Shown one piece after another: positions 35,998-42,807 of a stretch of DNA of 64,000 nucleotides (the first letter of the stretch is position 1; each line of letters begins with the position of its first letter). Below the pieces are notes generated by a model, which saw only the letters and a program-made list of their open reading frames with translations, was not told the DNA's origin and made no database searches. The position numbers were made by a program, and so were the translations under genes. The stretch is taken from positions 7,266-71,265 of IMG/VR virus record IMGVR_UViG_3300030333_002628. One strand, 5' to 3'. The DNA is from a virus.

Positions 35998-36013
35998 CAT
36001 ACCCCTTAATAAA
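35998..36013 (-). promoter_or_regulatory. Promoter class TTTATTAAGGGGTATG
   Basis: 29 nt above the ATG at 35984. Confidence 0.75.
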
Positions 36014-36135
36014 CCCACCGATTTACCTAGTGTAGAAAGTAAACCAGCATTATTTAAAGTATGTATTATTCTAAGTCTTAGGATAGCGGGTAAAGTAGAT
36101 TTGCTTTAGCGGATAAAGTAGGTCGGCGGAGGCGC

Positions 36136-36354
36136 TACCTACAAATTTCTTATCTACAAACCTTATCTACAAATGAAGTTATCTACAAATCACGTGGGTA
36201 TAAGTAGTTTGCTAAGGGTTTATGTAGTGGTTTTCTTATCTACAAAGAAAAATCCATTGCGTGCGTTCTAAGGCCGGAAAACGAAATCCAGGTCTCAAGG
36301 TAGCATCGCCGGGTAGTTCGCGCTCAGATTGCACGCCAGACGATTTGTAGATAA
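36136..36354. repeat. TTTGTAGATA repeat cluster 1
   Basis: 4 reverse copies (TTATCTACAAA) and 1 forward copy, plus degenerate copies. Confidence 0.95.
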
Positions 36355-36600
36355 CACCTATAAACAAATTTGTTGATAGGTAAGTGTAGATTCTGCACTA
36401 ATGGTTATTTTTGTAACCTAATGTAATGTATACAGCAGGTGTATTTTGCCACACTTAGTAACTTTTTAGTATTTAATGTTATTTTTGCACGAACTTTACC
36501 TTTTACACCAATTTTAATTTCAGATACCTAGTGCCTCTATCACATCAGGTAATTTTTCCTACATCTGGTGTTATAATTACACCGCCTCACTCGGCCCATG

Positions 36601-36746
36601 TATCTACAAAGTTGTAGATAATAAACTTAGCGGTTTACTTTTTGCACTAACTGTGGGCGCGAAGCGCAAGTGTGATTTCCAACACCTAGTGTAATTTTTG
36701 CACCGCCCCCAGGCGCGTAGCGCCTACCTACAAATTTGTAGATAAG
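36601..36746. repeat. TTTGTAGATA repeat cluster 2 (two palindromic pairs)
   Basis: TATCTACAAAGTTGTAGATA at 36601-36620; TACCTACAAATTTGTAGATAAG at 36725-36746. Confidence 0.95.
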
Positions 36747-36788
36747 GGGGGCGTGGGGTTAATATAGTAGGGGTGCGTAGGGTGAGAC

Positions 36789-37196
36789 ATGGCAATTGGC
36801 GGACATGGAACCATCAACCACTATACTGACGGTGAAACTAGAATAGTCATTAGACCACAACCTGTATTATACACGTTAAAGGAAGTGGTGGTAGGTATGT
36901 GGGACATTGACAAGACGACTGACTGGGATGACGAAGGTAATCAAACTGTTAAACTACACGAAACCCTGTGGCAAGGGACGATGGAGAGATACGGTAACAG
37001 GAAGGGTATGGTAGAATACCTATTAATTCACGTTTACGAGAATGCTATCAGGAACCCAGATTGGTGTCCTACAATAAATACTAACTCAAGATATGACGAA
37101 ATCCCCGATGGGTGCAGAGGTAGAATAGAAGACTTCGTTCTTAGAATAATGCCTACTCTACGTGGAGACAAGCACCCTCACAGGGAGGACGGCTGA
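36789..37196 (+). CDS. Hypothetical protein (island cassette 1)
   Basis: ATG 30 nt below TTAATATA; followed by a T-rich tract. Confidence 0.7.
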   Translation: MAIGGHGTINHYTDGETRIVIRPQPVLYTLKEVVVGMWDIDKTTDWDDEGNQTVKLHETLWQGTMERYGNRKGMVEYLLIHVYENAIRNPDWCPTINTNSRYDEIPDGCRGRIEDFVLRIMPTLRGDKHPHREDG

Positions 37197-37276
37197 AGCG
37201 ACTCACCAGAGACGGAGGTATTTTGACAGTTATTTTATTTTTCTATTTTATTTTTTATTTTTCACAGATATTTTTC

Positions 37277-37336
37277 TTTGTAGATAACCTATAACCAAAT
37301 TTGTAGATAAGGGCTTATCCACAAATTTGTAGATAA
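37277..37336 (+). repeat. TTTGTAGATA repeat cluster 3
   Basis: 3 forward copies plus a degenerate reverse copy, then a TTCATAAC box at 37350. Confidence 0.95.
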
Positions 37337-37378
37337 CCTGGCCGATGGGTTCATAACCTGGTAGGGGGTAGCGGTGGT

Positions 37379-37588
37379 ATGAGTGGCGAAGTAGACTGTC
37401 ATGCAATACCAGAAGAACTAACTTGTGTCCTCTGTGGTTTACCGATTAAAACAGACTGGGCGGGATGGAAGTATGGGCATAATGCGTTACCTGTTAAAGT
37501 AGGTCGAGCCTGTGATGATTGTCAGATTACTGTTATTCTACCTGCGAGAATAGGTATGATAATAGATACAGTAGGGGAGGAAGAATAA
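37379..37588 (+). CDS. Small Zn-finger protein (island cassette 2)
   Basis: CVLCG...YGHNALPV..GRACDDC...VILPAR; ATG 29 nt below TTCATAAC. Confidence 0.7.
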   Translation: MSGEVDCHAIPEELTCVLCGLPIKTDWAGWKYGHNALPVKVGRACDDCQITVILPARIGMIIDTVGEEE

Positions 37589-37590
37589 CC

Positions 37591-37767
37591 ATGATTCCAC
37601 ATCAGGTTGTATGTGATGGGTGCGGGGAGACTCACTTCCTAGATACTATAACAGAAGTAGTAGAATGGATGAGTGCCCACTACGATGCCTGTGATGACCC
37701 GAAGGTATACAAGAAACTCATAGTTAATCTAAAAGATAAACTAGAATACGAAGGGAGGTTAGAATAA
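37591..37767 (+). CDS. Small C2H2-like Zn-finger protein
   Basis: MIPHQVVCDGCG...WMSAHYDAC; GGAGG SD. Confidence 0.6.
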   Translation: MIPHQVVCDGCGETHFLDTITEVVEWMSAHYDACDDPKVYKKLIVNLKDKLEYEGRLE

Positions 37768-37769
37768 CC

Positions 37770-37919
37770 ATGAAATCATGTGAAGTAGACATTGATGACG
37801 ATTGCGTTGGTGAGGCAGAATATCTGGTCTTGGGCTTGCACACACGAAGATATTGCTGTGGCCCTTGCCTAGAACACGCGCCGGGCGATGTAGATATTGT
37901 TAACATTAAAGTAATGTAG
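37770..37919 (+). CDS. Small Cys-rich protein (49 aa, not in ORF track)
   Basis: Manual translation MKSCEVDIDDDCVGEAEYLVLGLHTRRYCCGPCLEHAPGDVDIVNIKVM; GGAGG SD. Confidence 0.6.
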   Translation: MKSCEVDIDDDCVGEAEYLVLGLHTRRYCCGPCLEHAPGDVDIVNIKVM

Positions 37920-37995
37920 TCAAAAAAACAGTTAAACTAGGTCAGATATTTTAATTTTTATTTTATTTTTCATTTTTTCACTCAAAAGGGGCGAA

Positions 37996-38064
37996 ATTTG
38001 TAGATAAGCCCCCAATATACCCAAATTTGTAGATAAGAGCGCTATATACAAATTTGTAGATAAG
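37996..38064 (+). repeat. TTTGTAGATA repeat cluster 4
   Basis: 3 forward AAATTTGTAGATAAG copies about 27-29 nt apart, then TTCATAAG at 38076. Confidence 0.95.
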
Positions 38065-38104
38065 AGAGCGACAGGTTCATAAGGTGGAGGGTGGTGGTGG
38101 TGTC

Positions 38105-38356
38105 ATGGCGAACTACCCAAGAGGGAAAAACACCGATACAATAAACCTAACACCAAGTCCTAGCGGATTCTTCGATATGCTATGGCTCATTGCTACTTCA
38201 AGTGAAAATGTAGGAGACAGGGAGTATGCTAGAAGAACGCTTAAAGCAGGTTACATACGTGGTTTAGCAAGTATACCAGATGACCTAGAAGGTAGTATAA
38301 CAGAAATGACAAGCGGGGAACCAATCGAAGATATGATTCCTGACGAGAGGGAGTAA
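38105..38356 (+). CDS. Hypothetical protein (island cassette 3)
   Basis: Start set at MANYPRG, 29 nt below TTCATAAG. Confidence 0.65.
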   Translation: MANYPRGKNTDTINLTPSPSGFFDMLWLIATSSENVGDREYARRTLKAGYIRGLASIPDDLEGSITEMTSGEPIEDMIPDERE

Positions 38357-38357
38357 A

Positions 38358-38525
38358 ATGGCACTATCAAGAAAGCACTTCAGAGAAATGGCGAAGGCTT
38401 GCGCTCGCCTCCCTGATGATGATAACAAAACAGTTATTGTAAACACGCTCGCTAAAATAAATGCTAACGCAAACCCCAGATTCCAGAGGGGGAGATTCCT
38501 AGCCGCTTGCTATAGGAAGGAGTGA
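38358..38525 (+). CDS. Small conserved phage protein (55 aa; SRKHF...NPRF...RFL.AC)
   Basis: Manual translation MALSRKHFREMAKACARLPDDDNKTVIVNTLAKINANANPRFQRGRFLAACYRKE. Confidence 0.65.
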   Translation: MALSRKHFREMAKACARLPDDDNKTVIVNTLAKINANANPRFQRGRFLAACYRKE

Positions 38526-38606
38526 CCGTTAAAGTAACTGGGATCGAAATAGTTTACCTAGTATTTTATATTTTTATTTTACTTTTTATTTTTATTTTTT
38601 CTTTTT

Positions 38607-38798
38607 ATTTGTAGATAATTTTTTATTTGTAGATAACGGCTATCTACAAATTTGTAGATAGGAGGATGCTGCGATTCTTATCTACAAATATTACCTGGCG
38701 GCTTATCTACAAATTATTATCTACAAATCTGAGCCTGCCGCTTATCTACAAATATTCATCCCTGCTTATCTACAAATGGATTCACACTATCTACAAAT
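38607..38798. repeat. TTTGTAGATA repeat cluster 5 with orientation switch
   Basis: 2 forward copies, the perfect 20-bp palindrome TATCTACAAATTTGTAGATA (38641-38660), then 6 reverse copies. Confidence 0.95.
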
Positions 38799-38865
38799 GG
38801 CTCGGAAGGCCCAAAAATGGCCTAAAATAACGGTGACTATAAGTAGCGGTGGCCTCTCACAGCAC

Positions 38866-39000
38866 CTGCCGACTTGTCGGCCTACCGAAATCTGGCTGGG
38901 AACAGTCAGAAGAACCCGCGCATCCTGATGCGTTTACAGCCCTGACAAAAAGGGGCTGAGGGGGACTTGACGCAGAAAGACGAGTCGGCGCTCTAAGGAG
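38866..39000 (+). ncRNA. Candidate structured 5' leader / cis-regulatory RNA
   Basis: Starts about 30 nt below ACTATAAG (38836). 11-bp closing stem 38868-78/38979-89 encloses three hairpins, one with a GGAA tetraloop. Ends at the AAGGAGG SD. Confidence 0.55.
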
Positions 39001-39009
39001 GAAAAACGA

Positions 39010-40551
39010 ATGGAAAACAGATATGTAGCCATGCGAACCATCCTACTAACCGCCCTGCTTCTCGCAGGGGCCGGAGTAGCGTCTGCCACAGATGACTCTG
39101 TGGTGGTCGAGAAGAACGCCGACATTGGGGGCAACCTAGATGCCTGCTCAGAAGATCGAGTGGTTATCACTCAGGCAGCCCTCAGACTGACCGATGAGCC
39201 GACTGTGTGCCATCCTAACGCGGACTGGAAAGCCCGTAAGAGGAGGCGCACTCTGGCCGCCAACAGTAAGGCACAGAAGGGGGCGCGAGTCCCCAAGAGC
39301 CACAAGCGGAACGGAGAATACCCCATCCGCAAAAACCTGTTGAATCGGCCCGCCGCCATGTCTGTCGCTGGCATTCAGCCAGAGTCAGGGATGAACGCGG
39401 AACAAGTGATTGAAGTCACCGGACTCGGAGACTGGCATTGCGAGAAGACCACGCAATATGCCCGAACCGGAGAAGTGTTGACGCTATACAATCAAACGTC
39501 TGAGGGACAGTTTGAGGCTGTTGAAATCCCCCAATATGAAGAAGTGGTGAACACCAAAGGCAACCTGCAAAGGCTGACCCGCAGAAGTGACACAAGGGTT
39601 CAATTCGGGCCTGTTGGAGACAATTACACCGTCCTCCAGCACTCCGATGCAATCCGAATGGTGCATGATGTGGTTGATGCCCTTGAACTGGACTGGGAGT
39701 ATGTTGGGACTGTTGATAATGGTCGCAAAATGCACGCAGCCCTACTCATGCCTGATGATGCTGCCTTCGCCCTGCCCGACTTCAATGACGGACAGGAGAA
39801 GTTACAGCAATACATCGGTATCACGAACCAGCATGACGGGAAGGGGGCATTCTCCTTCTCGCAGTTCGTGATGAGGATATGGTGCTGGAATCAGTTCGTA
39901 GCCACATTGGGCGCAGTCGGGAACAAGGGTAAGTCAGCCAACGCTGATGTGTCCTTCCGAAAGACGTTCAGGCACAATCAGCACATGGAAGCGAACATCG
40001 CAAAGTGGTCGCAGGTCATGGCGCTGACAACCCAGCATAACAGGGCTTACATCGAACTGGTGGAAGAACTGCTGGATGTGCCGATGGATATGTCTGAGCG
40101 CATTAACTTCTACGTGAACCACTTGGGCCTCAAGGGGCATCAGAAGCGCGTAGAGGCGGACGGAACTAACCCTTACGGGCTATCCACCAAGGGCCAGATA
40201 AAACTAGACACGCTGCTAGACTTGGAGACACAGGAACAGAACCAAGTCGGGCGCATGGATGGGACTGTCTGGCAGGCTGTTCAGGTGCTTCTTGACTACT
40301 ACGACCACGAATACCTCTACGATAAGCAGGGGGACGTTTCCTTGGCACGTGCAAAGGATTCGCTACAAGGTCGGGTGGCAAAGAGGAAGGTGCTAATCCA
40401 GAAGTGCGGATTGATGTCCATTCAGGACGAATCAGCATGGAAAGAGCAGGTGTCCTTCCACGCGCACCTAGTCGAGAAGGATGATGACCCAGAGGACGAC
40501 CCAGAAGCAGAGGAGAACGCGCTTCTGGATGCGGCCCTAGAACTGGCCTAG
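39010..40551 (+). CDS. DUF932 / TIGR03299-like phage-plasmid protein with N-terminal signal-peptide-like extension
   Basis: GLGDWHCEK, RRSDT....GPVGDNYTVLQH, GTVDNGRK, ITNQHDGKGA, MRIWCWNQ, RHNQ, GTVWQAVQ..DYYDH; AAGGAGG SD. Confidence 0.8.
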   Translation: MENRYVAMRTILLTALLLAGAGVASATDDSVVVEKNADIGGNLDACSEDRVVITQAALRLTDEPTVCHPNADWKARKRRRTLAANSKAQKGARVPKSHKRNGEYPIRKNLLNRPAAMSVAGIQPESGMNAEQVIEVTGLGDWHCEKTTQYARTGEVLTLYNQTSEGQFEAVEIPQYEEVVNTKGNLQRLTRRSDTRVQFGPVGDNYTVLQHSDAIRMVHDVVDALELDWEYVGTVDNGRKMHAALLMPDDAAFALPDFNDGQEKLQQYIGITNQHDGKGAFSFSQFVMRIWCWNQFVATLGAVGNKGKSANADVSFRKTFRHNQHMEANIAKWSQVMALTTQHNRAYIELVEELLDVPMDMSERINFYVNHLGLKGHQKRVEADGTNPYGLSTKGQIKLDTLLDLETQEQNQVGRMDGTVWQAVQVLLDYYDHEYLYDKQGDVSLARAKDSLQGRVAKRKVLIQKCGLMSIQDESAWKEQVSFHAHLVEKDDDPEDDPEAEENALLDAALELA

Positions 40552-40586
40552 CCCGGATCGAGTGAGTCCACTTCGGAACAACATAA

Positions 40587-40657
40587 GTCAGCAGGGGGGG
40601 CAGAGAATCGCCGCCCCTGTTGACCCACTTTCTGCGCGGTTTTTTTTCGGTTTTTTC
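40587..40657 (+). terminator. GC-rich hairpin followed by T-tracts
   Basis: GTCAGCAGGGG...CCCCTGTTGAC stem, then TTTTTTTT. Confidence 0.65.
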
Positions 40658-40659
40658 GC

Positions 40660-40986
40660 ATTTGTAGATAAGAAAATCCCATTTGTAGATAAGGATTTTG
40701 ATTTTATTTGTAGATAAGATTTTTATTTGTAGATAAGATTTTGATTTTATTTGTAGATAAAAATTTGTAGATAAGAGGAATTTTTATTTGTAGATAATTT
40801 TTTGGGAAATTTGTAGATAAGAAAATTTGTGTATAAAAATTTGTAGATAAGAATTTGTATGTAATAATTTGTAGATAAAAATTTGTAGATAAGATGGCGT
40901 AGCCTAAATTTGTAGATAAGGCTAGTGCTGTAAATTTGTAGATAAGAAGCCAGGTGAAAATTTGTAGATAGCCCGCTTATCTACAA
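40660..40986 (+). repeat. TTTGTAGATA repeat cluster 6 (densest)
   Basis: 14 exact forward copies, 2 degenerate copies and a final reverse copy, with spacers of 1-15 nt. Confidence 0.97.
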
Positions 40987-41021
40987 TTATTGCTTATAGG
41001 CAGATACCCATTCCGCTATTC

Positions 41022-41144
41022 ATGGCAAACGGAAACAAGCCTACGAAGCACAGCCAGAAACCGCCCAGAGTTACCTTCCTGATGGAAGTGACCTTCGATG
41101 AGCAGGGTTGCACCCTGCAAATCTTCGATGTGAGGAGGGTCTGA
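41022..41144 (+). CDS. Small hypothetical protein (40 aa)
   Basis: Manual translation MANGNKPTKHSQKPPRVTFLMEVTFDEQGCTLQIFDVRRV; ATG about 28 nt below TTATAGG. Confidence 0.55.
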   Translation: MANGNKPTKHSQKPPRVTFLMEVTFDEQGCTLQIFDVRRV

Positions 41145-41145
41145 A

Positions 41146-41583
41146 ATGGATAAGGACGCGCCGATATTCCGAGGAGAGAAGATCGAAATTCCTCAGCACA
41201 TGGTCGAAGACTACCTTCACATTCTGGAACTTGGCTACGGCAACCCCCACAGCCGAAACCCAGATGATACCGAGAAAATAGACGCTCTACGCATCCTCTT
41301 GGGCAGAATGACAATCCAAGAAGAGGCAATTCAAGAACTCTGCTCGGAAGTATTCGACAACCCCAACAGACACCCGAAACTCTACGAGAATGAGGAGGAT
41401 ATGAGGCACTACGACCTTAAGCCATTCACCGACCTATGGCTAATGTATGCGAGTGATTCCAAACTCTACGCATCACAGGGAACCCTAACAGACGCAGCAC
41501 TTGAGGCAGTTAAGGAATACGAGCCAGAGAGCGACATTGAGGCCCGATTTGCCGCAATGGTTCAGAGGGGAGGGGGTTATTGA
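41146..41583 (+). CDS. Acidic hypothetical protein
   Basis: 145 aa; GAGGAGG SD. Confidence 0.7.
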   Translation: MDKDAPIFRGEKIEIPQHMVEDYLHILELGYGNPHSRNPDDTEKIDALRILLGRMTIQEEAIQELCSEVFDNPNRHPKLYENEEDMRHYDLKPFTDLWLMYASDSKLYASQGTLTDAALEAVKEYEPESDIEARFAAMVQRGGGY

Positions 41584-41760
41584 ATGACGGAATTGAGAAT
41601 TGGTCTAATTACTTCCCGCTACCGAGTTTCCCATCCTCAGATTCGACATGACCCAGAGATGGCGGAGAGGGTCAAGAAATTCTTGGCAGAGAAGCAGAAG
41701 GAAGACCGAGATCGAATGTGGGCCAGATTCGCAGAGGAGTTAGACGGACTATTATCTTAG
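41584..41760 (+). CDS. Small hypothetical protein (58 aa)
   Basis: Manual translation MTELRIGLITSRYRVSHPQIRHDPEMAERVKKFLAEKQKEDRDRMWARFAEELDGLLS. Confidence 0.55.
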   Translation: MTELRIGLITSRYRVSHPQIRHDPEMAERVKKFLAEKQKEDRDRMWARFAEELDGLLS

Positions 41761-41769
41761 AAATTCTAC

Positions 41770-41816
41770 GGTGGCGGGGGTGTTTCCGTTCAATTTTCCC
41801 CCGCTACCAAATTTTT
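41770..41816 (+). terminator. GC-rich hairpin followed by T-tract
   Basis: GGTGGCGGGGG...CCCCCGCTACC 11-bp stem right after a stop codon. Confidence 0.6.
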
Positions 41817-41826
41817 CCAGGCTACG

Positions 41827-42040
41827 ATTTGTAGATAATTTTTGAGGCTACGATTTGTAGATAAGGCCAGAATTTGTAGATAAGAATTTGTAGATAAGAA
41901 TTTTAATTTGTAGATAATTTTTTCTTTTTTTATTTGTAGATAGGCGAAAATTTGTAGATAGGGGGCCAGGCCAGGATCGGCGGCCAAAATCGGAAAAAAA
42001 TCCTGCCTGGAAAATCGGCTGAATCCGTCCTTTGTAGATA
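41827..42040 (+). repeat. TTTGTAGATA repeat cluster 7
   Basis: 8 forward copies; the last is just upstream of TTCATAAG (42047). Confidence 0.95.
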
Positions 42041-42075: not shown

Positions 42076-42807
42076 ATGCAATCCGGCAATGGAATGTTAG
42101 AAGTAGTAAAATTGAACGCAAAAATAGGGGCTGAAACGGCAGCCTTCCTCAGAGAGAACGGCATGGTGCTAACTAGGGCACAGAACGCCATTCTAGTGCC
42201 AGAGGAGGCCGCCCACATGATGCTCTCGATTGAGGGGCAGATTCAGGCCGTAAACTGGGCCAGAGAGACCCAGAAGAACGGCCTAACGCCAGCAGAGAGG
42301 CCCGACTGCGAATGCGGGGGACACCTGAACGCAGATTACGGCCTATCGGACAGAATTCCGACCTGCTCGCGCTGCCAGACCCCCAGATTCGCGGGGACTC
42401 GCTCAATCAGGGAGAAGGTCAGCCAGACCTACGAGCCAAGCCTGTCAGACCACGTAGACGGGTTCACCTTGGTGATTAGGGACGAGCCAAAGAGAAGGGC
42501 GCTCAAGAAGACCCAGAGCGAAAGGGGCGGCCCTTGGGAGACCCAGACCCTATTCTGTGGGGCAGCAGTCCGACTAAGGGGCTTCGGGGAACAACTGTGG
42601 GCCTTCACAGACAGCACAGGCCGCTATTGCGGTGAGGGGCTTCTATGGGCCTTCGGCGTGTCCCCTAGTGGCATAACGGGCATTGTGGCAATCCACCCAG
42701 CCCAGACCGCGCAGTTCGTAGGCAGGGTTCAGATGACAGCCGACCCCTTCGACCTACTAACCACAGTAGACGCACCCAGCGCACTAATCCGCACCTACTG
42801 GGGCTAG
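42076..42807 (+). CDS. Hypothetical Zn-ribbon-containing protein
   Basis: CECGG...CSRC; ATG 29 nt below TTCATAAG; GC-rich. Confidence 0.7.
   Translation: MQSGNGMLEVVKLNAKIGAETAAFLRENGMVLTRAQNAILVPEEAAHMMLSIEGQIQAVNWARETQKNGLTPAERPDCECGGHLNADYGLSDRIPTCSRCQTPRFAGTRSIREKVSQTYEPSLSDHVDGFTLVIRDEPKRRALKKTQSERGGPWETQTLFCGAAVRLRGFGEQLWAFTDSTGRYCGEGLLWAFGVSPSGITGIVAIHPAQTAQFVGRVQMTADPFDLLTTVDAPSALIRTYWG

Follow-up and report, generated by a model that had tools for sequence, protein, structure and literature searches.

Why should one gene in an island whose other transcription units look leaderless be preceded by a long untranslated stretch that folds stably? In the virus described here, this question is raised by nucleotides 38867-39009 (~143 nt), which lie on the coding strand between a promoter-like box and the Shine-Dalgarno (SD) sequence and ATG of a gene for a DUF932 protein, and which have no coding capacity of their own. 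We conclude that the DUF932 mRNA has here a structured 5' leader that is real and conserved in part, and that this leader probably acts on mRNA stability or translation.

The virus and its repeat island

The DNA analysed, called the window here, is 64,000 nucleotides long and comprises positions 7266-71265 of a 71,265-base IMG/VR virus record (C1) that is rated complete. It carries a tailed-virus morphogenesis set (tape measure, terminase, portal, and cement protein) and, on the opposite strand, an archaeal-type replication set (family B polymerase, RFC-like clamp loader, ERCC4/Hef nuclease, and thermosome-type chaperonin). In GenBank, the viruses that best match the family B polymerase are haloarchaeal and tailed, with ~25% identity across 89% of its length, and the sequencing runs that contain the locus are all marine. 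Passages of the founding magrovirus paper describe group A magroviruses with thermosome genes and a "pattern of homology to haloviruses" (PMC5434244). On the basis of the gene content, the haloarchaeal polymerase matches, the marine runs, and the traits given in those passages, we infer that the source is a magrovirus-like archaeal tailed virus, a label that is not a formal classification.

The two modules are separated by an island of short genes on the + strand (36.1-42.8 kb), whose units each end in T-runs (T5-T8). Searching the window for TATCTACAAA with at most one mismatch gave 63 matches where 7.6 were expected; none of 100 shuffles reached 63, and 52 of the matches fall in intergenic stretches within 36136-42040. 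In this 6-kb island, 11-mers with the core CTACAAAT occupy every intergenic stretch, with three copies ahead of each leaderless promoter, 10 ahead of the DUF932 gene, and 15 behind it. The DUF932 gene is bracketed by arrays of opposite orientation; in the array behind it, 14 matches are exact and on the - strand, and one, with a single mismatch, is on the + strand. The array ahead of the gene, which precedes the DUF932 promoter, presumably consists of operator sites or iterons (Table 1).

Repeat islands recur in three relatives, with 34, 34, and 39 core copies compared with 0-3 for a reversed control. Islands of this kind are present in records G001-G003, the source records of loci L248-L250. 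Among the relatives the islands are kept and the first bases of the repeat word are altered (TATC, TAAC, TTGC), which points to a co-evolving DNA-binding protein. The repeats, putative protein-binding sites, may serve as operator, partition site, or origin.

Two other places in the island deserve mention. At 36199 there is a second TATAAGTAG box, with reverse-oriented repeats ahead of it and ATG-TAG behind it, followed by ~560 nt with further repeat copies and no ORF longer than 30 aa; the segment 36199-36789 may be another non-coding transcript or the long leader of the gene at 36789-37196. Behind the ORF at 42076-42807, the segment 42805-42985 contains a strong inverted repeat (GGTCTGGGGGGGCAGAAGTCCCCCCAGACTGG) and T-runs and is among the most stable windows of the folding scan described below. 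This inverted repeat is probably a terminator between convergent units.

Table 1. Features in and around the DUF932 transcription unit, in window coordinates
Feature	Position	Strand	Remarks
T-rich run, probable oligo-T terminator ending the operon ahead (38105-38525)	38560-38606	+	like the T-runs after other island genes
Repeat array, ten 11-mers with CTACAAAT core	38607-38798	.	3x ATTTGTAGATA, 7x TATCTACAAAT
Promoter-proximal block GGCTCGGAAGG..CCTAAAATA (Box 1)	38799-38829	+	near-identical in L039/L250, recognisable in L003
TATA-like box ACTATAAGTAG (Box 2)	38837-38846	+	29-nt spacing rule
Predicted transcription start	38866-38868	+	+29 rule from Box 2; end-closure statistic highest there
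P1, 5' strand GCCGACTTGTC	38868-38878	+	P 0.93-0.97; holds conserved YTGTC word
Hairpin H1, TCTGGCTG-GGAA-CAGTCAGA	38891-38910	+	P 0.94
P2, CCC (38915-38917) with GGG (38961-38963)	38915-38963	+	P 0.81
Hairpin inside P2, GCGCAT/ATGCGT	38918-38933		P 0.94
Hairpin inside P2, CAGCCCT/GGGGCTG	38937-38958		P 0.99
GACGC, unpaired	38969-38973	+	kept in all three long-type lineages
P1, 3' strand GACGAGTCGGC	38979-38989	+	holds conserved GACRR word
Shine-Dalgarno AAGGAGG	38995-39001	+	AGGAGGAA(A/G)AAA kept in L003 and L039
DUF932 gene, 513 aa	39010-40551	+	ATG at 39010
T8 and T6 runs, likely terminator of the DUF932 transcript	40640-40656	+	
Second and largest repeat array	40661-40987	.	15 matches of the 10-mer search
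Box/ATG pairs of the other island promoters	36760/36789, 37350/37379, 38076/38105, 40993/41022, 42047/42076		

Promoter and predicted transcription start

The original prediction had placed the ATG about 29 nt below a TATA-like box at the other island promoters. We found a TATA-like 8-mer 29 nt ahead of the leaderless ATG at all five of the other island promoters read, and the same box-to-ATG spacing ahead of three leaderless genes in the relative L250. Two of the L250 boxes (CTTAAGTAG and TTGATAAAG) are the box types of the L003 and L039/L250 DUF932 promoters. Applied to ACTATAAGTAG, the 29-nt rule predicts a transcription start at ~38867, one base ahead of helix P1. Another A-rich box that is conserved, CCTAAAATA (38821-38829), could give an alternative start near 38850, and with that start CCUCU (38853-38857) is predicted to pair with the SD (P 0.94).

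Contigs from an RNA library are limited to 38962-40548. The 5'-most of them starts at 38962 and runs unbroken to 39303, across the ATG, so that the coding part is joined to no less than the final 48 nt of the leader; such contigs cannot mark a start, and the library may contain DNA. None of the contigs of four runs covers 38883-38961, a gap that counts neither way. Since contigs cannot mark a start and the gap proves nothing, the contig ends were given no weight, for or against, in judging a start at 38867. Positions 38649-38882 are covered by the DNA run X4, which differs in the repeat and promoter area only, so that it carries no covariation information.

A conserved upstream peptide was considered and rejected, as a 36-codon GTG frame in the leader is not kept among the relatives. 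In L250, two 1-nt deletions break the leader frame that is open in L039.

The DUF932 protein

The DUF932 domain (PF06067) spans residues 200-447 (83.9 bits against a cut-off of 23, E 1.9e-23), and the protein matches phrog_1221 (E 1.4e-31), a PHROG of unknown function. An N-terminal hydrophobic, signal-like helix is followed by a disordered basic linker and then by the domain. The AF2 model (pLDDT 75.8) has a helix at residues 2-20, disorder at 21-109, and a confidently modelled domain. The hydrophobic N-terminal segment and a basic AANSKAQKGARVPK block are kept in all four of the DUF932 homologues, which, together with an in-frame TAA at 38995-38997 just 5' of the ATG, makes the start codon at 39010 secure. 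A Foldseek search of the model against the PDB gave no match at E<=0.001, the best being a Whirly protein (E 0.04); a PDB sequence search gave no match, and in a structural comparison the best VIA Z was 4.7.

The DUF932 family has 8493 representatives at E<=0.001, and the long type forms five 50%-identity clusters among the best 150 of these. Short-type homologues (~330 aa) lack the N-terminal helix (residues 2-20) and the ~90-residue linker.

Predicted fold of the leader

The MFE fold of 38866-39009 contains all four helices of the original prediction, with base-pair probabilities of 0.81-0.99. Every helix and motif lies at the position given there, including a second GACTTG (38964-38969) and CGAGTC (38981-38986). 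P1 has 11 pairs, one of them G-U, and its arms were also recovered as inverted repeat I23. Together with 38875-38881, the 5' strand of P1 forms the palindrome GCCGAC-TT-GTCGGC. On the + strand the segment folds at -58.6 kcal/mol with a z of -4.61, and none of 200 dinucleotide shuffles was as stable; on the - strand the z is -2.01, and four of 200 shuffles were as stable. With the box spacing described above, this stability upholds the proposal that, in an island that looks leaderless elsewhere, a promoter-like box is separated from the SD and ATG by a long and unusually stable untranslated stretch.

As a control across the 64 kb, 3550 windows of 144 nt were folded on both strands at a step of 36. 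The leader ranked 22nd by GC-adjusted MFE (top 1%), and when the 40 best windows were retested with 40 shuffles each it came fourth, with a z of -5.36, behind two repeat-array windows and one window inside the ORF at 42076-42807. Ninety random windows had a mean z of -0.22 (sd 1.09, minimum -3.67). The fold of the leader is real and unusual, yet it is not unique. GC content is 0.60 in the leader and 0.54 in the DUF932 gene, compared with ~0.42 in the genome.

The ORF at 42076-42807, which is GC-rich, encodes 243 aa and has no Pfam or PHROG match. In its segment 42229-42372, the - strand has an MFE of -66.3 and a z of -5.11, and the + strand a z of -3.67. Given a fold this strong at 42229-42372, a high z in the GC-rich part of the island is not in itself evidence of a regulatory RNA.

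Leaders of related viruses

Three other lineages were compared with the window, without P0002 (a protein homologue 89% identical to the DUF932 protein of the window), P0126, and P0127. These are L003/L004 (42% protein identity to that of the window, repeat word TAACTACAAAT, leader of 127 nt), L039 (= L248) and L250 (35%, TATCTACAAAT, 95-97 nt), and L005/L006/L249, which are of the short type without the signal segment (31%, TTGCTACAAAT, ~155 nt). All four lineages have the same order of T-run, inverted and then direct repeats, box, long spacer, AGGAGG, and DUF932, with leaders of 95-143 nt in the window, L003/L004, and L039/L250. Two further short-type DUF932 genes lie inside operons and have no array.

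The leaders of the window and L003 are alike in sequence (z 3.2, none of 500 shuffles), as to a lesser degree are those of L003 and L039 (z 1.8, 25 of 500 shuffles). Between the window and L039 there is no significant sequence likeness (z 0.84, 110 of 500 shuffles), and the L005 leader is like none of the others compared. The three long-type lineages have in common the words YTGTC near the start, GACGC, an A-rich gap, GACRR, and the SD. The L248 and L250 leaders differ at 5 of 115 columns and their third codon positions at 36 of 514, so the leader shows no extra constraint over third codon positions in this pair.

A metagenome scan for leader relatives yielded L002-L006. An HMM of the window and L003/L004 leaders, run against 879 kb of loci, found nothing else and missed L039/L250 at E<=10. 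No homologous leaders were found in viral contigs searched by protein or by exact leader word, or in species genomes, and GenBank phages gave only DUF932 at <=25% identity. Two loose repeat patterns had unrelated DNA among the matches listed; tighter patterns and a wider protein alignment gave L248-L252, L254, and L261, which are the same two relatives, plus short-type loci only.

The short-type leaders of L005/L249 contain CTTGCGTGGTCG twice (L005 2769-2781 and 2830-2841). The same word occurs once in a 95-nt spacer ahead of a 72%-identical gene in L286 (about 2548-2560, - strand). The virus of the L286 locus is another complete virus, in which the repeat array is absent at the spacer before its DUF932 gene.

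Conservation of structure

An anchor-based alignment of the window and L003 leaders gave a 14-pair consensus consisting of the P1 core (TTGTC/GACRA), H1, and P2. RNAalifold gave -13.9 kcal/mol, which none of 300 column shuffles equalled, for an alignment that was tuned to H1, and the structure conservation index (SCI) was only 0.30. In L003, H1 is TTCGGG/CCCGAA between shared anchors, with three of the six pairs changed on both sides, and the CCC/GGG pairing of P2 is kept. Taken alone, the L003 leader is no more stable than its shuffles (z -0.07 and -0.87). The fold that L003 itself prefers is closed by CCUUA/UGAGG, and imposing the P1 core (TTGTC/GACAA) on it costs 7.4 kcal/mol. The L039/L250 folds have a z of -3.2 (-2.25 and -2.7 from the predicted starts) and a closing helix, CUGUCG/CGACAG, on the same conserved words, and the L005 leader has a z of +0.78. 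Four leaders aligned with MAFFT and RNAalifold gave only six pairs because L039 misaligns, and a covariance model from the window and L003 was dropped, as MAFFT misaligns both ends.

We also counted the expected pairs between the first 16 and the last 45 nt of each leader, an end-closure measure that was picked after the folds were seen and that rests on inferred starts. By this measure the window, L003, L039, and L250 leaders have 11.4, 11.5, 9.8, and 10.7 pairs, compared with 2.7-3.8 pairs in shuffles, of which 1, 0, 2, and 2 of 100 reach the observed value. End closure is absent from L005 (3.7 pairs, 35 of 100 shuffles as high). In the window and L003 it peaks at the predicted start, and shifting the start by 7-14 nt weakens it. 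For L039 and L250 the value is much the same with a start 7 nt downstream (9.5 and 10.8), and upstream shifts abolish the closure. The profile thus agrees in part with the start prediction. On these predicted folds, 5'-3' closure appears to be the most consistent property shared by the leaders, the interior being mostly changed.

A probable closed leader domain

The explanation that we favour, and to which we give an even chance, is that the leader forms a closed domain that serves mRNA stability or acts as a protein platform. Transcription would begin ~29 nt below ACTATAAGTAG, at ~38867, downstream of the ten TATCTACAAAT sites, which are presumably bound by a regulator. The leader RNA is predicted to fold into a single domain in which P1, of 11-12 bp, would join the 5' end to a segment ending six bases ahead of the SD and would enclose three hairpins, two of them nested in the short helix P2. 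The ribosome site would be largely open, and by burying the 5' end the domain could protect the mRNA from 5'-end-dependent decay. Alternatively, the domain may be a docking platform to which a protein would bind.

The open ribosome site makes 5'-end burial or protein docking more likely than control through the SD. For a transcript starting at 38866, opening the SD takes 1.4 kcal/mol, a value equalled or exceeded in 39 of 60 controls with shuffled upstream sequence; for one starting at 38849 it takes 4.5 kcal/mol (12 of 60 as high). Masking of the SD was rejected as a mechanism in this virus, the opening energy being not above that of the controls; a stronger value was found only in L039 (7.4 kcal/mol, 1 of 60 controls). 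A ligand-driven on/off switch is also less likely than 5'-end burial or protein docking.

Bacterial and phage mRNAs can be stabilised by 5'-terminal stem-loops, such as that of the ompA leader, and it is by analogy with these that the role of the domain is proposed. Like these, the DUF932 leader has a helix within 1-4 nt of the predicted 5' end and a structure lying in cis upstream of an accessible ribosome site. Unlike them, it belongs to an archaeal-type virus and is a 120-nt multi-hairpin domain rather than a single hairpin. Autoregulatory mRNA leaders that bind proteins include ribosomal-protein leaders and the archaeal L7Ae-type K-turn leaders. The few invariant unpaired words of the DUF932 leader (GACGC and GACRR) resemble these as a putative protein site, although no known protein-binding motif was identified in it. 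Archaeal mRNAs may have long SD-led 5' UTRs, as opposed to leaderless ones. The leader described here is similar in that leader and SD stand at the first gene of a unit, other first genes being leaderless, and differs in its exceptional stability and in the closure kept among relatives.

Alternative explanations

The most credible of the alternatives, although an unlikely one, is that the DUF932 mRNA starts at ~38960, from a weak internal promoter or by cleavage. The working leader would then be ~48 nt long (GACGC, GACGAG, and SD), and the hairpin domain 38867-38960 would be removed or never made. The sequence GTTTACAG at 38933-38940 is loosely TATA-like and lies 28 nt ahead of 38962, but the ATA core found in the eight boxes read is missing from it, and the matching place in L003 or L039 has no AT-rich box. 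The words GACGC, GACRR, and SD, kept in three lineages, all fall within the last 45 nt, as such a short leader would have it; a start at ~38960 leaves unexplained why the 5' strand of the closing helix lies exactly at the start predicted from the box.

Next in probability, and likewise unlikely, is a constraint on the DNA rather than on the RNA. The palindrome at the start site would be the operator of a lineage-specific dimeric repressor, and the fold would be a by-product of a GC-rich spacer. The start palindromes do differ among lineages, being GCCGAC-TT-GTCGGC in the window, GCTAA..TTAGC in L003, and GGCCTCGTG..CACGAAGGCC in L039, and they span +2 to +15, -7 to +17, and -16 to +10 from the predicted start, respectively; a protein operator would account for them just as well. 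The half-site GTCGGC occurs again at 38984-38989, and the island is rich throughout in repeats of the protein-binding type. However, the transcribed strand folds distinctly better than the other, H1 and P2 are far from the start, and the pairing of H1 survives double changes. The sole substitution in the palindromic 5' hairpin of L039/L250 changes a G-C to a G-U, which keeps the RNA pair and breaks the DNA palindrome.

A more specific reading, which we regard as doubtful, is that the leader is a virus-specific riboregulator, whose unpaired GACGC...GACRR would be read by a viral protein and would time the production of the membrane-targeted DUF932 protein. The reader might be the protein that binds the CTACAAAT arrays or DUF932 itself.

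A ligand- or temperature-sensing switch of the riboswitch type, in which the P1 fold and local hairpins would alternate and control translation, is very improbable. The layout is indeed the usual one of riboswitches, with a long, structured region upstream of the SD in which P1 closes a multi-branched junction, and in L039/L250 a CCUUC can pair with either a 5' GAAGG or the SD. The alternative pairings for which the leader had been called switch-like are present as sequence but are not competitive, since the alternative state, at -49.0 compared with -57.6 kcal/mol, is 8.6 kcal/mol less stable, and the duplicated GACTTG and GTCGGC on which it depends are absent from L003 and L039/L250. In predicted folding of 20-96 nt transcripts, the local hairpin forms first, so the alternative state can be a folding intermediate; on these models it is not an equilibrium switch.

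The riboswitch-like character once proposed for the leader fares no better. Rfam 15 (4227 models) gave five matches in 36000-42000, at E 1.5-9.3, and no family overlaps 38866-39009 even at E<=10; at the gathering score there were no matches in the whole window, nor did ARAGORN find a tRNA or tmRNA gene there. No conserved aptamer core was found among the leaders, in a comparison of three lineages only that has low power. As for an expression platform, the leader has no terminator and no SD-hiding alternative fold of similar energy. Its longest T-run (38867-39009) is 3, which excludes a transcription attenuator by sequence, and the SD is not specially hidden, as its opening energy (1.4-4.5 kcal/mol) was equalled or exceeded by 12 to 39 of 60 controls.

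Words resembling C/D boxes and a hammerhead (CUGAUG, CUGA, GAAA) were noted by eye and rejected, as they are wrongly spaced for such motifs and none of the Rfam models matches there.

A separate small non-coding RNA of ~100-140 nt from the TATAAGTAG promoter, a further suggestion of the original prediction, would suit the compact, stable, closed fold and the second such box at 36199, which also precedes non-coding sequence, but it is the least probable reading, because no T-run longer than 3 or other terminator lies between the box and the SD and ATG, all other island units end in T-runs, and the RNA-library contig connects 38962 to the coding region.

Implications

Very little is known of how viruses of uncultured marine archaea regulate their genes. 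The founding magrovirus paper does not use the words repeat, promoter, intergenic, or non-coding, as far as its main text was available (PMC5434244). In a literature search on riboswitches in archaeal viruses, neither term appeared in a title or abstract among the matches listed, and no literature match joining Poseidoniales with leaderless transcripts was found. In these passages and literature listings we found nothing comparable described for viruses of marine archaea.

The locus offers a testable unit consisting of an operator array, a promoter, a closed structured leader, an SD, and a gene whose family is very large and has no known function. If the leader has no control over mRNA life or translation, it would be an ordinary GC-rich spacer, and the repeat arrays would then be the more interesting feature. 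If it does have such control, leaderless and leader-dependent expression would be mixed within one module. Were the riboregulator reading true, no class of cis-regulatory RNA would have been described in archaeal tailed viruses before this leader.
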